NCBI GenBank assembly: GCA_019429005.1
Contig: JAHYJR010000003.1
Span: 76,026-140,025, forward strand
Length of the DNA stretch: 64,000 nucleotides
Origin: Nanobdellati archaeon
GTDB lineage: Archaea > EX4484-52 > GLR71
Direction: 5' to 3'
Every line of letters begins with the position of its first letter. Within the stretch, counting starts at the first letter, position 1. Below the pieces are notes generated by a model. That model saw only the letters and a list, made by a program, of their open reading frames with translations, searched no databases and was not told the origin of the DNA. Positions 20,332-43,701 of the stretch are shown here, in pieces. The translations under genes and the position numbers were made by a program.

Positions 20332-21351
20332 TCAATTAATCTCATAATTTCGCCATCTACCAGAACCTATAGATTTCACAAGATTTTGTCTAACTAGTGA
20401 TTCCATATGTTTACGATATGTTCTCTCAAGAATATCATCACCTGTAAGCTCAACATATTGTCTTAAAAGATCTCCTGAAGATATAGGACCTGAAGATTTC
20501 AAAATATCATAAAGTGTCTTTTTAATATCATCAAGAACAACCGTACGCTCATCTTTTTTGGAATCACAAACATTATCACATGCACGAATAACATCTTCTA
20601 TAGAAATTGTATCCTTCGCCTGATTTTCAGCAAAAAGCGCAGAATTCCGTAAAATATCAATTGCAACACGCGAATCCCCATGGGATTTATGCGATATTAT
20701 CTTAAGATATTCAATCTTAATAGAGCCTGGATACAAAGCATATTCCGAACGTTCTTTCAATATATCAAAAAGCTCATCTGGTTTATATTCTGGAAATTCA
20801 ATAGTTTCAAACGCAAGAGATGATTTAATCCTAGAATCAACATCAAAAAAGGCATACTTATTGTTTGAAACAAGAACAAGACCATAATTTTCTCTTGAAA
20901 ACACATAAAGAAGTTCTTTTTCTTTCAACTGATCAACTTCATCAAGACAGATTATTACTTTTTTAGATGTTTTTTTTACATAATTACTAATAGCTTTAAC
21001 AAGCTCATCTCGCGGCTGCTTAAGATTTGTAAACACATTAAGAGAACTCACAATCTCATTAAGTATAGAATGTGAAGTCGAACATTTCCAACAATTAACA
21101 TAAACCGTTTTTACAGATTGTGTATGTCCCTCAAACTCCGAAAATATCCATTTAACAAGAGATGTCTTTCCAACACCCGTTGCTCCAAATAAAAATATAT
21201 TACGAGGGGTTCGACCAAAAGATGCGGGTTTCAAAGCATTTGCAACGGCTTCAACTTGACCTTCACGATGCAATATTTTCTCAGGAATAAATACCTCAAG
21301 AAGTATTGATTCGTCTTTTATCACAGATTTTACCATATCAAAAAGTCCCAT
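20332..21351 (-). CDS. cdc6: Cdc6/Orc1 family AAA+ ATPase with winged helix
   Basis: LHREGQ, Walker A GATGVGKT, YVNC, Walker B LDEVD, GDSRVAIDIL. Confidence 0.9.
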   Translation of the reverse strand: MGLFDMVKSVIKDESILLEVFIPEKILHREGQVEAVANALKPASFGRTPRNIFLFGATGVGKTSLVKWIFSEFEGHTQSVKTVYVNCWKCSTSHSILNEIVSSLNVFTNLKQPRDELVKAISNYVKKTSKKVIICLDEVDQLKEKELLYVFSRENYGLVLVSNNKYAFFDVDSRIKSSLAFETIEFPEYKPDELFDILKERSEYALYPGSIKIEYLKIISHKSHGDSRVAIDILRNSALFAENQAKDTISIEDVIRACDNVCDSKKDERTVVLDDIKKTLYDILKSSGPISSGDLLRQYVELTGDDILERTYRKHMESLVRQNLVKSIGSGRWRNYEIN

Positions 21352-26740: not shown

Positions 26741-27049
26741 ATGAATTACGACAAAAAAATTGAAACTCTTTCAAAAAATATTGAAGATCTTAAAAAGATG
26801 ATATTAATTATTGGAAAAAATATAGATTCATACAAAAAAACTATAGATACTACAAATCAAAATCTTGAAACATTGCCTGTAAAATTAGAAGCAATATTTT
26901 CAAAAATAGATTCTGAAGTAACATTAAGTCAACTTAAAGCGGGACTAGATGAACTTAAACTTACAACAAATGATATACAGACAAACGTTGATGAGATTTC
27001 AAGAATACTTATTGAAGAAGTTGCAGAAGGATCAAAAAGACTTTACTAA
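26741..27049 (+). CDS. Coiled-coil hypothetical protein
   Basis: Heptad-like I/L pattern; AGGTG RBS. Confidence 0.7.
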   Translation: MNYDKKIETLSKNIEDLKKMILIIGKNIDSYKKTIDTTNQNLETLPVKLEAIFSKIDSEVTLSQLKAGLDELKLTTNDIQTNVDEISRILIEEVAEGSKRLY

Positions 27050-27058
27050 CTTAAAAAA

Positions 27059-28330
27059 GTGATTATCTTGCCTGAACAAAATATAGATATATCTAAAAAT
27101 GTATATCCCGCAGACATAATTAAAATAAAATGGATATATAAAAATATTAGAGATACACTAAACAGCATTGGATTCAAAGAAGTTGAACCGACTTCAAAAA
27201 ACAGTAAAGATTTGACCGAAATACTCCAAAAAGAAGGTGTAGAGGATTTATGCCTAATTAATTATGAAAATAACAAAAAAGACTCCTTTGTATATGATAC
27301 TTCAACTAACATAATTGAAATGTCAAAAGAAGTAAGATTACCAAAACCAATGAGATGGTATGCAATCTCAAAAATATACAGAAAAGAACAGAATAAATTA
27401 AAAAACAAAAGATCATGTTCAGCATGCATAATGGGTTCAAAAGATGTTTTTGCAGACTCTGAACAAATATATGCAATATTAAATATTCTAACACCTCTTG
27501 GAATTGAACCCGTTGTACATATAGGACACAGAGAACTTATGTCTGAAATTTTAAAATATATGGGCATCGAAGAGAACGTTATAGACCAAGCACTAACTAT
27601 ATTTAAAGACTCAAAAATTGATGGAATTCAAGCAACATTTAAAAAATTTAATTTGTTAGGCGTTGAAAAAATTATTGTAACAGAAATACTTAATTTACTC
27701 AAATTTGAAGGATTATCAAAAGACCTTATAAATCATCTTAAAAACACATTTAATGACAATGATGAAATTAGTATACTTATAGAAGAACTCAATCTGTTTA
27801 TAGATGAATTAGACAATTATAATATATTACGATTCTGTAAACTAGATCTTAAAATAATAGGTACAACCTACAACGATGGTATTGTATTTGAAGTATATGA
27901 TATTAAAAATAATAAATTCCAAATTGCTTCAGGTGGACGAGTTAACATGCTTGCCGAACTTCTTTCAAACAATGAAATGCCATCAACTGCATTAAATATA
28001 GATGTTGATATGATTTACAATTTAATTGAAAAGAAAAAAATTGTGACTAAAATTGAACAAACTATAGATATTTATGTCGCACCAGAAAGCCTAAATTCTA
28101 GACGTAATGCAATAATGATTGCAAAACAATTTAGAAAGAAAAAAGGTATCGTTGAAATTGACATAAGTGGCAGAAGTTTGGACAAACAAATATTACATGC
28201 AAAAAAACTTAAAATTCCAAAAATAATAATAATACGAGATGATGACCTTAAAAATGGATTTGTCATAATGGAAGATTTTAAAACAAAAGAAAACACAAAA
28301 ATCATTCTAAAAGGTAAAACAATAAAATAA
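27059..28330 (+). CDS. Histidyl-tRNA synthetase-like protein with degenerate active site and intact anticodon-binding domain
   Basis: HisRS layout recognisable (GFKEV, PKPMRWY, ADSE, IGHR, ASGGR, DIYV...VEIDISGRSLDKQILHAKKLKIPKIIII), but the catalytic motifs are replaced. Confidence 0.8.
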   Translation: MIILPEQNIDISKNVYPADIIKIKWIYKNIRDTLNSIGFKEVEPTSKNSKDLTEILQKEGVEDLCLINYENNKKDSFVYDTSTNIIEMSKEVRLPKPMRWYAISKIYRKEQNKLKNKRSCSACIMGSKDVFADSEQIYAILNILTPLGIEPVVHIGHRELMSEILKYMGIEENVIDQALTIFKDSKIDGIQATFKKFNLLGVEKIIVTEILNLLKFEGLSKDLINHLKNTFNDNDEISILIEELNLFIDELDNYNILRFCKLDLKIIGTTYNDGIVFEVYDIKNNKFQIASGGRVNMLAELLSNNEMPSTALNIDVDMIYNLIEKKKIVTKIEQTIDIYVAPESLNSRRNAIMIAKQFRKKKGIVEIDISGRSLDKQILHAKKLKIPKIIIIRDDDLKNGFVIMEDFKTKENTKIILKGKTIK

Positions 28331-28340
28331 TTTTAAAGGG

Positions 28341-30140
28341 ATGTCAAATATGATATACATACCAGATACTAGTGTAATTATTGATGGAAAAATAACTGAA
28401 CTAATAAAAAACAAAAAATTAAAAGGTACTATAATTATTCCAGAATTTGTAATCTGTGAACTTGAAAATCAAGCAAACCGTGGACGTGAAACTGGTTTTA
28501 TTGGTCTTGACGAAATAAAAAATATTCGAGAATTAGCTAAAAAAAATAAAATAACAATTTCTGAACTTGGTCGAAAACCAACATCTGAAGAAATCAAACT
28601 TGCAAATACAGGCCGTATTGATGCACTTATTAGGGATATTGCAAAAAATGAAAAAGGCGAACTTCTTACATCAGACATTGTACAAGCAAAAACTGCTGAA
28701 GCTCAAGGTATAAAAGTAACTTATTTTGAAAAAATAAAAATAAAAACAGAACATCTCAAAAAATACTTTGATAAAAACACTATGAGTGTACACCTTAAAG
28801 ATGGTATGAGACCAAAAGCAAAAAAAGGTCTCCCTGGACAATTTAAACTAGTTGAAATTGGAAAAGAAATATTAACAAAAGAACAACTTGAAGAGATTGC
28901 AATTGAGATACTTGAAGCACAAAGAACAAGCGATAAATCATTTATTGAAATAGCAAAACATAAAGTAACAGTAATACAACTTGGAAATTGTAGAATTGCA
29001 ATCACAAGACCACCTTTTTCAGAAAAGATGGAAATAACAGCAGTAAGACCAATTGTAAATGTAAACCTTGATAGTTATAAAATACCAAAAAGACTTAAAG
29101 AACGTCTTGATACAAAATCAGAAGGCATAATTGTTGCAGGACCTCCAGGTCATGGGAAATCAACATTATCACAAGCACTTGCAAATTATTTTGACGAAAA
29201 GAAAATGATTGTAAAAACAATGGAACAACCAAGAGATTTACAATTAAATCCATCAATAACACAATATGGGCCACTTGAAGGTAGCATGGAAAAAACAGCA
29301 GACATACTTCTTCTTGTAAGACCTGATTTAACTATATATGACGAAATTAGAAAAACATCAGATTTTAAAATATTTGCAGATATGCGACTTGCAGGTGTCG
29401 GTATGATTGGTGTTATACACGCAACAAGACCAATTGATGCAATACATAGATTTCTCGGACGAACCGAACTTGGACTTTTACCACAAATCATTGATACAAT
29501 ACTTTTTGTATATGAAGGTAAGATTTCTAAAGTTTACTCACTTAAGCTTATGATTAAAGTGCCAACAGGCATGGTTGAACAAGACCTTGCAAGACCTGTC
29601 ATAGAGGTTACAGATTTTGAAACAGGTACCTTAGAGTATGAGATTTACACCTATGGTGAACAAACAATCGCAATAGCTATAGAAGGCGAAGCAACTTCAA
29701 AAATACAAAAACTCGCAGAAGAGCAGATTAAAAAAGTTGTAGGTCAATTTTCAAAAGATATAAAAATCACAATCGTATCAGATGATCGTGTTGTACTAAA
29801 TATACCAGATAGAGATATTGCGTCATTTATAGGTACAAAAGGTAAAAATATTTCAAAAATAGAAGAAAAACTAGGAATACATATTAGCGTAGAACCAATT
29901 ATAGACACACTCAAAAGAACCGTATCCTATGCTATTACAGAATCTGGAGGATATCTCAATATGCAAATTACAGACACATTAAAAATAAATGAAAAATTTG
30001 CAGACATCTACAAAGATAAAGAATTTCTTTTTAATGCTACAATAGGTAAAAAAGATATAATTAAAATAAAAAAAATCTCTGAAATTGGACAAAAAGTGCT
30101 TCAAGCATTCACACTTAAAAATTTGAGAGTTCTTGTATAA
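28341..30140 (+). CDS. PIN-domain / P-loop ATPase / KH protein (PINA, PINc-VapC ATPase)
   Basis: IPDTSVIIDG PIN, Walker A GPPGHGKST, LVRPD..IYDE, HAT, KH motif FIGTKG. Confidence 0.93.
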   Translation: MSNMIYIPDTSVIIDGKITELIKNKKLKGTIIIPEFVICELENQANRGRETGFIGLDEIKNIRELAKKNKITISELGRKPTSEEIKLANTGRIDALIRDIAKNEKGELLTSDIVQAKTAEAQGIKVTYFEKIKIKTEHLKKYFDKNTMSVHLKDGMRPKAKKGLPGQFKLVEIGKEILTKEQLEEIAIEILEAQRTSDKSFIEIAKHKVTVIQLGNCRIAITRPPFSEKMEITAVRPIVNVNLDSYKIPKRLKERLDTKSEGIIVAGPPGHGKSTLSQALANYFDEKKMIVKTMEQPRDLQLNPSITQYGPLEGSMEKTADILLLVRPDLTIYDEIRKTSDFKIFADMRLAGVGMIGVIHATRPIDAIHRFLGRTELGLLPQIIDTILFVYEGKISKVYSLKLMIKVPTGMVEQDLARPVIEVTDFETGTLEYEIYTYGEQTIAIAIEGEATSKIQKLAEEQIKKVVGQFSKDIKITIVSDDRVVLNIPDRDIASFIGTKGKNISKIEEKLGIHISVEPIIDTLKRTVSYAITESGGYLNMQITDTLKINEKFADIYKDKEFLFNATIGKKDIIKIKKISEIGQKVLQAFTLKNLRVLV

Positions 30141-30271
30141 AATTAATACATAACCACACACAAAAGATAAAGGTACCGTAATTCACATCTTTAAGTGGTA
30201 AGGCGTATATAATTACAAAAAAATACATACTAATTCTATAACAGCAATATAACTCAAAAAAGGAGATAGCT

Positions 30272-30502
30272 ATGGTAGAATTTATAACAATAAAACAAAA
30301 AGAGATGAAATTTGGGACCAACAACTTTGTTGAAGTCGCAAACAAGAAAGCAGTGACAAGTGACGGTGAAAAGCCATTCATATCAATAACAAGAGGCTAT
30401 TACACAGAAGACAAACAAAAAAAATTCACAAAAGCAATATCACTACCACTAGAAGAAACTTTAATAAATGAAGTAATTGACGCAATTGGAAAAGTTATTT
30501 AA
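30272..30502 (+). CDS. Small conserved protein, PC4-like fold suspected (paralogue A)
   Basis: GGAGA RBS; FISITRGYY...KFTKAISLP; clear paralogue at 32843-33097. Confidence 0.75.
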   Translation: MVEFITIKQKEMKFGTNNFVEVANKKAVTSDGEKPFISITRGYYTEDKQKKFTKAISLPLEETLINEVIDAIGKVI

Positions 30503-32842: not shown

Positions 32843-33097
32843 TTATTTTGTCTTTAAAACATCAAGAAGTGCTTTTGATATTGCTTCAATTACTTCTTTA
32901 TCACTAGGCATAGCAACAGATTTCTTAAATCGTGGTTCTTCTTCTTCTTTTGTGAAGAAACCTCTTGAAATGGAGATAAATGTATTCTCTTCACCATCTT
33001 CAGGTATCGCTTTTTTCTTAGCAATTTCAATAAAGTTGTTTTCACCAAACTTAACTTCAATAGATTTTATTGTTTCAAATGTTACGTTTCCAGACAT
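32843..33097 (-). CDS. Small conserved protein, PC4-like fold suspected (paralogue B)
   Basis: KFGENNFIEIAKKKA...FISISRGFF...RFKKSVAMP aligns with 30272-30502. Confidence 0.78.
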   Translation of the reverse strand: MSGNVTFETIKSIEVKFGENNFIEIAKKKAIPEDGEENTFISISRGFFTKEEEEPRFKKSVAMPSDKEVIEAISKALLDVLKTK

Positions 33098-42453: not shown

Positions 42454-43701
42454 CTATTTTTTTATTCTTATATCTGCTGCATTTTTATGTCCTTTAAGTC
42501 CTTCAAGATCAGCCATTCGGGATGCAATTTTACCTAAAGCAATACAACTATTTTTATCAATCTCTTGATAAGTTAAAATTTTAATAAAATCTTTAACAGA
42601 TAATCCTCCAGTATATTTTGAAGCACCATTAGTTGGTAATGTATGATTAGTCCCACTACAATAATCACCAAATACTTCTGCAGAATAATTTCCAATAAAC
42701 AAAGATCCATAATTAGTCAATTCAGAAATTAACTGTTCCTTATCTTTAACTTGTATTTCTAAATGTTCTGGTGCTCTTCTATTAGCGATTTTAATTGCTT
42801 CAGTCAAATTATTAACAAGAACAATTTTACCATTATTCAAAGCGATTTTTGCAACATCTTTAGTTGATAATTTTTCCAATTGAATTTTTAACTCATTATT
42901 AACTTCTTCTGCTAGTTCTTTAGAAGTTGTCAATAAATCACATCTTGCATTTGGATCGTGTTCTGCTTGAGCCAATAAATCTGCTGCAATAAATTCCGGA
43001 TTACCCGTTTCATCTGCAATAATCAAAACTTCGCTTGGACCAGCAATAAAATCAATACCTACAAAACCATAAACTTCTTTTTTTGCAACAGCAACAAATT
43101 CATTTCCCGGTCCAACTATTTTATTTACTTTAGGTACTAATTTTGTACCATAAGCCATAGCTCCTATAGCTTGAATTCCACCAATATTAAATATTTTATC
43201 CGCACCAGCAATATCTGCTGCAACAATAGTTATAGAATCAATTTTAGGTGAACATACGATTATTTCTTTTACGCCAGCAACTTTTGCAGGAATCACACTC
43301 ATCAAAGCTGAAGAAGGTAAAGGATATCTTCCCCCTGGAACATAACAACCCACTTTTTCTATTGGAATTATTTTTTGTCCAAGTATAACTCCGTCTTTTT
43401 TAATTTCGAAATTTTTAAATGTTTTAAATTGTTCTTTTGCAAAAAATGTTATATTTTTGGCAGCTTCCTTAAGAATTGAAACATCTTCTGAATTAACTTT
43501 TTTATATGCATCTTCAATTTGTTTTTTTGTAATTAAAGTATTTTCTAAATCTAAATTATCAAACTTCTTTGTGTATTTATTAACGGCTTTATCTCCATCT
43601 GTTTTAACTTCATTTAATATTTGATTTACAACTTCAATTTTTTCTAGTTCTAGATATTCATAATATTTATTTGTTAAATCATTAGAATTTATTATCTCCA
43701 T
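42454..43701 (-). CDS. hisD: Histidinol dehydrogenase
   Basis: YVPGG, GGIQAI, GPGN, AGPSE, QAEHD, PEHLE, GDYCSGTNHTLPT, EGLKGH. Confidence 0.95.
   Translation of the reverse strand: MEIINSNDLTNKYYEYLELEKIEVVNQILNEVKTDGDKAVNKYTKKFDNLDLENTLITKKQIEDAYKKVNSEDVSILKEAAKNITFFAKEQFKTFKNFEIKKDGVILGQKIIPIEKVGCYVPGGRYPLPSSALMSVIPAKVAGVKEIIVCSPKIDSITIVAADIAGADKIFNIGGIQAIGAMAYGTKLVPKVNKIVGPGNEFVAVAKKEVYGFVGIDFIAGPSEVLIIADETGNPEFIAADLLAQAEHDPNARCDLLTTSKELAEEVNNELKIQLEKLSTKDVAKIALNNGKIVLVNNLTEAIKIANRRAPEHLEIQVKDKEQLISELTNYGSLFIGNYSAEVFGDYCSGTNHTLPTNGASKYTGGLSVKDFIKILTYQEIDKNSCIALGKIASRMADLEGLKGHKNAADIRIKK

Follow-up and report, generated by a model that had tools for sequence, protein, structure and literature searches.

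A degenerate histidyl-tRNA synthetase-like gene upstream of PINA in a Nanobdellati archaeon: a candidate displaced native synthetase

Gene Organization of the Locus

A degenerate histidyl-tRNA synthetase (HisRS)-like gene and its surroundings were evaluated in a window of 64,000 nucleotides, which is the whole stretch of DNA analysed and whose first letter is position 1. The window is located on contig C8 (JAHYJR010000003.1, positions 76,026 to 140,025 of the forward strand) of the Nanobdellati archaeon assembly GCA_019429005.1, a metagenome-assembled genome (MAG) of 1.08 Mb in 15 contigs with a completeness of 93.6% and a contamination of 1.1%. The DNA is AT-rich, and the GC content varies from about 26 to 34% along the window. 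The product of the gene is denoted P0001; the other two HisRS of the same genome, both encoded on contig C10, are denoted P0002 and P0003. Related genomes and the families of these relatives carry G-numbers and f-numbers, respectively, and the GTDB phylum of the source genome comprised 42 species genomes in a single order. P0001 very probably has no catalytic activity and lies where the relatives carry their only canonical hisS. The four genes of the string are as follows.

26741..27049, + strand: small coiled-coil protein gene, 102 aa, first of the string; weak coiled-coil-type profile matches only
27059..28330, + strand: degenerate HisRS-like gene P0001, 423 aa, GTG start; identified from Pfam, NCBIfam, motifs and fold
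28341..30140, + strand: PINA gene (PIN + RecA-type ATPase + KH), 599 aa; NF010335 at 770 bits, Pfam PIN, T2SSE and KH_1
30272..30502, + strand: small conserved protein gene, 76 aa; open reading frame 3' of PINA with homologues in the relatives

All four genes were read from the same strand, and the positions of the reading frames reproduced the gaps given in the initial annotation, namely 9 bp between the coiled-coil gene and P0001 and 10 bp between P0001 and PINA. The naming of PINA was likewise confirmed: the NF010335 score far exceeded the cut-off of 340 bits, and the architecture was PIN, T2SSE-type ATPase and KH. The Sulfolobus-type PINA equivalog NF053733 reached 464 bits, under its cut-off of 800. 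Start motifs of the GGTGA/AGGG/GGAGA type were found a few bases 5' of the coiled-coil gene, PINA and the small gene, whereas no clear Shine-Dalgarno-like motif was observed before the GTG start of P0001 in the start region read (27040-27075). The 420-aa form of P0001 in a public protein collection starts from a TTG codon at 27068, three codons after the GTG, and AGTGAT stands before this TTG.

Degeneration of the Catalytic Core and Retention of the Fold

P0001 matched the Pfam families tRNA-synt_His (PF13393) at residues 14-318 and HGTP_anticodon (PF03129) at residues 346-415. The score on the TIGR00442 hisS profile was 130.6 bits, below the cut-off of 286.75, whereas P0002 (350.9 bits) and P0003 (375.8 bits) were above it. 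The sequence of P0001 was aligned with those of P0002, P0003 and 149 canonical HisRS. The replaced motifs and the C-terminal domain are listed below; the four motif rows are based on these alignments.

27287..27304, + strand: FVYDTS, residues 77-82, in place of the histidine-binding LRPExT
27377..27421, + strand: YRKEQNKLKNKRSCS, residues 107-121, in place of motif 2 (fRYErPQxGRxREFxQ)
27851..27880, + strand: KIIGTTYNDG, residues 265-274, in place of the HisA motif RGLxYYTG
27989..28015, + strand: ALNIDVDMI, residues 311-319, in place of motif 3 (GxxxGxER or GxGMGD), both glycines lost
28049..28327, + strand: C-terminal anticodon-binding domain, residues 331-423, from Pfam HGTP_anticodon, identity and predicted local distance difference test (pLDDT) values

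In motif 2, 3-4 residues were deleted; R108 and E110 were retained, and the Gly-Arg and the Gln of the loop were gone. The HisA segment RGxxYY was reduced to -GTTYN, in which the arginine was deleted and the second tyrosine was replaced by asparagine, and the HisB segment GGGRYD was changed to SGGRVN. The remnants of the histidine pocket were E135, Y271 and G292-G293-R294. Among the 43 columns with at least 85% conservation in the 149 canonical HisRS, 17 were retained in P0001, compared with a canonical median of 41; the next-lowest value, and the only other one under 31, was 21/43 for a HisZ-like protein, P0087. The damage to LRPExT, motif 2, HisA and motif 3 that had been noticed at first reading is hence real in the alignment, and judged from these residues P0001 is very probably catalytically dead.

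The anticodon-binding domain behaved differently from the catalytic halves. It shared 28-29% identity with the relatives, where canonical HisRS from different families shared 33-34%; the catalytic halves showed 21-30% for P0001 and 35-58% among canonical HisRS. The domain had been described initially as preserved, and its divergence is indeed about that of a normal HisRS. The AlphaFold2 model of P0001 had an overall pLDDT of 74.6, with 80-91 in the C-terminal domain; low values were limited to residues 1-15, 45-81 and 108-115 (the N-terminus and the active-site loops) and dropped below 50 at 108-115. A full-length match of the model to solved HisRS structures was obtained with Foldseek, with template modelling (TM) scores of 0.65-0.70. 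The predicted structure thus indicates that the HisRS fold is retained, and the end-to-end HisRS layout of the initial annotation was borne out by this match together with the Pfam domains. In comparison with canonical archaeal HisRS (TIGR00442), P0001 shares the length, the domain order and the fold (class II core, insertion domain and anticodon-binding domain), and the best sequence match among solved structures was HisRS of Thermoplasma acidophilum (1wu7; 8.1e-22, TM 0.68). It differs in the degenerate motif 2, HisA, HisB, motif 3 and LRPE and in its sub-cut-off score.

Database searches recovered no family of such proteins. A word-indexed search of 5.8 billion proteins returned only P0001 itself as a dead HisRS, and so did an exhaustive phmmer search of 1.84 billion representatives, in which the other hits had at most 31% identity and the near ones were intact in their motifs. 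As far as these sequence collections indicate, the dead form is unique to the source genome. In the literature, no account was found of an archaeal HisRS that is dead, stands alone and has an anticodon-binding domain.

Two Intact HisRS in the Same Genome

The initial annotation had proposed a search for a second, canonical hisS and for hisG, and would have counted its reading as refuted if P0001 were the only HisRS and aminoacylated tRNA-His. Two HisRS genes above the curated cut-off, with all motifs intact, were found on contig C10, and hisG was present on the same contig, adjoining P0003. P0003 (424 aa) had complete motifs, including GLERL, and was encoded within a hisG-hisS-hisI-hisE operon. 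P0002 (425 aa) carried the GMGD form of motif 3, which was common among the database matches, and its gene was convergent to this operon (L008:5150-9225). Each of the 40 nearest genomes had a single HisRS, with one partial exception, and the motifs were intact in 19/19 of those aligned. Among the remaining 41 genomes of the phylum, none had an orthologue of P0002, nor one of P0003. Since the relatives lack both a P0002 orthologue and a second hisS, both intact copies look acquired; we regard P0002 and P0003 as probable acquisitions, as ancient paralogy followed by many losses would be less parsimonious.

Contamination or mis-binning of contig C10 was considered and rejected. Its composition gave no sign of a foreign origin: the GC content was 0.300 for C10 and 0.305 for C8, and the tetranucleotide profiles were correlated with r = 0.99. 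The general caveat that attaches to MAGs remains. Two intact HisRS are thus kept alongside the dead copy, and P0003 might double as a partner of HisG.

Gene Order and Phylogeny of P0001

The best matches of P0001 anywhere were the HisRS of the relatives, with 25-32% identity; within its own genome the values were 26% for P0002 and 22% for P0003. The gene order around P0001 was compared with that of the relatives, with one further gene, located 5' of the string, as a synteny anchor.

20332..21351, - strand: Orc1/Cdc6-type AAA+ gene, 339 aa; Pfam Cdc6_lid and AAA_22

This gene was 49% identical to the counterpart at an equal relative position in G008, and G002 has one too. In G008, the shared Orc1/Cdc6 gene was accompanied by a 96-aa homologue of the coiled-coil protein, with a canonical hisS 10 bp further on and PINA another 140 bp on. 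In G002, the order was coiled-coil gene, hisI, hisG, canonical hisS, two small genes, PINA and small protein. The homologues of the coiled-coil gene were 96-113 aa long with 30% identity; the one in G008 stood just 5' of the canonical hisS, and the one in G002 headed the locus. The hisS gene lay 0.3-1.1 kb 5' of PINA in G004, G038 and G039, and 0.3-1.5 kb when G002 was included. According to this shared gene order, P0001 occupies the normal hisS position of its lineage.

A careful tree was built with added Methanobacteriota sequences and without HisZ sequences. In this tree, P0001 fell within the clade of the hisS of families f1, f3, f4 and f8 (14 rows, support 97/89), and its end branch was 3.02, compared with a median of 0.61. 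P0003 was sister to the Methanobacteriota hisS (100/97), and P0002 was placed inside the GMGD clade (100/99). Taken with the gene order, the sequences indicate that P0001 is the lineage's own hisS, vertically inherited at its ancestral position.

Constraint on the Reading Frame

PINA of the source genome had 59-63% identity to that of the relatives, and the 59-62% measured alongside hisS was the same as the level between the families of the relatives. Canonical hisS showed 38-41% between these families, whereas P0001 had 27-30% to the relatives, and this excess divergence was concentrated in the catalytic core. Neutral evolution of the frame was simulated with point substitutions at the base composition of the genome in 2000 runs, and indels, had they been added, would lower the rate of open frames. 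The simulated 423-codon frame was open in 65, 3, 1 and 0 of the 2000 runs at 10%, 20%, 25% and 30% extra amino-acid divergence, respectively. Moreover, every indel of P0001 relative to the aligned HisRS was in frame. An open frame would therefore be unlikely for a neutrally evolving gene, which makes some non-catalytic role plausible. These results argue for continued selection on the predicted product, or at least on its frame, and speak against the purely neutral evolution that had been named initially as an alternative.

Linkage of hisS and PINA

The hisS gene was located just 5' of PINA and on the same strand in 38 of 80 PINA loci from named genomes. In Methanobacteriaceae, this arrangement was observed in 32 of the 33 loci with enough upstream DNA. 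Five of these loci were read closely (L060:2222-5842, L042:2208-5824, L074:2165-6049, L099:2343-5812 and L065:1223-3426), and all of them had the order hisS-hisI-PINA, with the stop codon of hisI overlapping or abutting the start of PINA in four. The same string, in which hisI encodes phosphoribosyl-AMP cyclohydrolase, also occurred in a few other archaea, for example at one Hydrothermarchaeota locus. A by-product of the analysis is therefore that hisS adjoins PINA in two distant archaeal groups, with hisI between them in Methanobacteriaceae. No description of a hisS-PINA linkage was found in the literature, and the one PINA study examined mentions neither hisS nor an operon. The string, in which a synthetase and a histidine-pathway enzyme precede a DNA/RNA-remodelling ATPase, is conserved.

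The same order exists in the relatives and in Methanobacteriaceae with a canonical hisS; hence, the adjacency to PINA predates the catalytic loss in P0001 and gives no evidence for a partnership of a pseudo-synthetase with PINA. The initial annotation had proposed such a module, which is not supported, as the hisS of the relatives is canonical. It had also asked whether the linkage is peculiar to this genome: the hisS-PINA linkage is not, and the dead state of the synthetase is.

Proposed Displacement of the Native hisS

The observations are best explained, with a probability of roughly 0.6, by a native hisS that was displaced and then kept as a non-catalytic protein. The native hisS of the lineage would have stayed at its ancestral spot in the string of coiled-coil gene, hisS, PINA and small protein gene. 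The source genome, alone in its phylum, carries two intact HisRS of other clades, P0002 and P0003, which would have been gained. Once these covered the charging of tRNA-His, the native copy would have been freed from catalytic constraint, and it would then have lost the histidine- and ATP-binding residues and the motif-2 loop. P0001 would no longer aminoacylate; it would still be under selection as a protein, as suggested by the intact 423-codon frame in DNA of 30% GC, the in-frame indels and the conservation of the anticodon domain. Its likeliest role would be non-catalytic, in tRNA/RNA binding or as a scaffold, with the protein produced from the old operon, and the adjacency to PINA would be a legacy of the ordinary hisS gene order.

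The closest concept for P0001 is the displacement of a native aminoacyl-tRNA synthetase by foreign copies. Xenologous displacement likewise leaves a native-clade copy that degenerates and other-clade copies that are intact. It is usually seen once the native gene is gone, whereas P0001 is still an open frame in the old operon. If the proposed history is correct, a displacement has been caught in progress, with the native gene open beside two foreign replacements. Intermediates of this kind are rarely seen, and this one may give insight into the early fate of a displaced synthetase, which could be reuse as an RNA-binding protein or plain decay. The case opens no new system, and the dead form comes from one MAG only.

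Several points weigh against this explanation. In a quick 60-row tree, trees constrained to group P0001 with P0003 or with f1 were better than the free search (p-AU of 0.64 and 0.63 in the approximately unbiased, AU, test), and a grouping of P0001 with P0002 was not rejected (p 0.175). The quick tree and the AU tests were indecisive on account of the long P0001 branch, so phylogeny by itself does not decide the matter, and the orthology of P0001 is indicated mainly by its position. Polar effects of nonsense mutations on the downstream PINA gene could also keep the frame open, even if the protein had no function. P0001 has no close relative, hence no ratio of nonsynonymous to synonymous substitutions (dN/dS) is available, and the identity values are all near saturation, which makes the contrast between the domains soft. 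Finally, the co-residence of three HisRS genes in one cell depends on the binning of the MAG.

In a possible but rather unlikely reading, P0001 is a late-stage relic, a redundant native hisS on its way to loss. Its product would have no function, and its frame would be open because the inactivation is recent or because of polarity on PINA and the small gene. P0001 is a singleton without a conserved dead family, two intact replacements exist in the genome, and the length of its end branch is 4- to 5-fold the median. The tight operon spacing makes polarity on PINA plausible, and the missing Shine-Dalgarno-like motif at the GTG start, unlike at the three neighbours, would fit a decaying gene. A simulated neutral frame, however, seldom survived the observed excess divergence, and the indels of P0001 are all in frame. 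Furthermore, its anticodon domain is near-normal while the catalytic core has lost about half of its expected identity, and the modelled protein still folds as a HisRS. Retention as a non-catalytic protein is preferred.

Sensing Module, HisZ and Active-Enzyme Readings

The module suggested in the initial annotation, a pairing of a tRNA/RNA-sensing pseudo-synthetase with PINA on the model of GCN2 and its HisRS-like domain, was considered very unlikely. The 10-bp spacing to PINA, the retained anticodon-binding domain and the PIN and KH domains of PINA would suit it, and the linkage in two distant archaeal groups may reflect some general functional tie between HisRS and PINA. Everywhere else, however, the partner of PINA is a canonical hisS; the dead form was found a single time, P0001 carries no fused kinase or other output domain, and neither co-variation nor interaction support was obtained for P0001 and PINA. 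Eukaryotic GCN2 contains an inactive HisRS-like module, as P0001 appears to be from its residues, and the HisRS-like domain of GCN2 binds uncharged tRNA. In GCN2 this domain is fused to a kinase, whereas P0001 is stand-alone and prokaryotic, has no family, and was found to contain only the HisRS and anticodon domains. A broader version, in which P0001 is a stand-alone binder of tRNA-His or other RNA that modulates PINA or reports the histidine/tRNA-His status to it, for which reason it would have remained in the old hisS-PINA operon, and is thereby an independent prokaryotic counterpart of the GCN2 sensor in one lineage, is quite improbable.

A role of P0001 as a HisZ-like regulatory subunit of ATP phosphoribosyltransferase (HisG) was also highly improbable. 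The HisZ family consists of dead HisRS paralogues, some with a C-terminal domain; hisG exists in the genome, part of the histidine pocket is retained (E135, Y271 and G292-G293-R294), and hisG lies directly 5' of hisS at the equivalent locus in the relatives G002 and G005. The score of P0001 on the HisZ profile TIGR00443, however, was 88.5 bits (cut-off 271.65), lower than the 130.6 bits on HisS, and both were under their cut-offs. The gene of P0001 and hisG are on different contigs, and it is P0003 that adjoins hisG. HisG of the source genome has 288 aa and matches the C-terminal regulatory domain weakly but over the full domain length (193-285), which corresponds to the long-form architecture, and long-form HisG works without HisZ. 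The careful tree, which held no HisZ sequences, grouped P0001 with the native HisRS of the relatives. An identification as HisZ was rejected, as the profile scores, the location and the architecture of HisG all spoke against it, and the grouping with HisZ beside a short hisG that had been envisaged initially is not what was found.

P0001 resembles HisZ (TIGR00443; 3od1) in that both are derived from HisRS without catalytic residues and some HisZ subfamilies keep the C-terminal domain. It differs in having arisen separately, from the native HisRS of the lineage, and in lacking HisZ profile grouping and hisG linkage. The initial statement that HisZ normally lacks the anticodon domain was too strong: several curated HisZ models have 380-434 positions and cover the C-terminal domain, and the Bacillus HisZ structure 3od1 (380 residues) also matched the model of P0001. 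P0087, from the library of representative proteins, is a degenerate HisRS-like protein of 421 aa with a full C-terminal domain; its best scores were on HisZ models, with 208 bits on TIGR00443 and 149 bits on hisS. Long HisZ forms with an anticodon-binding-like domain hence exist.

That P0001 still works as a HisRS through an atypical active site, for which the retained R108, E110, E135, Y271 and GGR292-294 and the full-length fold could be cited, was scarcely credible: the HisA arginine is deleted, LRPE and both motif-3 glycines are lost so that neither GxxxGxER nor GxGMGD is formed, the motif-2 loop is shortened and without its Gly-Arg and Gln, and none of the 149 canonical sequences comes near this pattern.

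Histidine-Pathway Genes and the Small Protein Family

When the source genome was searched with his-operon queries from G014, only hisG, hisI, hisE and hisD were matched, and no match at E < 1e-8 was obtained for hisB, hisC, hisH, hisA and hisF. The pathway is either partial or has its absent genes in the unassembled 6% of the genome. The hisD gene lies within the window, at about 42457-43620 on the - strand. A tRNA-His gene is present on contig C11 (278066-278139). In the relatives, the sole canonical hisS closes the his operon, as in L034:1118-3057 (G005), L029:2676-5383 (G002) and L035:705-9087 (G014). In G005, hisS directly follows a short HisG of 217 aa that has no C-terminal domain. The single HisRS of the relatives perhaps serves as both a synthetase and a HisZ-like partner.

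The 76-aa protein encoded 3' of PINA had been labelled PC4-like, which was left unconfirmed by the searches, as its family had no Pfam or NCBIfam match. The window carries two copies, the second of which is given below.

32843..33097, - strand: paralogue of the 76-aa small protein, 84 aa; 46-59% identity to the copies of the relatives

Homologues of the small protein were located directly 3' of PINA in G002, G038 and G032. Compared with the hisS link, the conserved pairing of the small protein with PINA may carry more meaning. The protein was 76-95 aa long (130 aa as called in L036), and its copies in the relatives were at the loci L029:8721-8963, L032:4714-5001 and L036:507-899.

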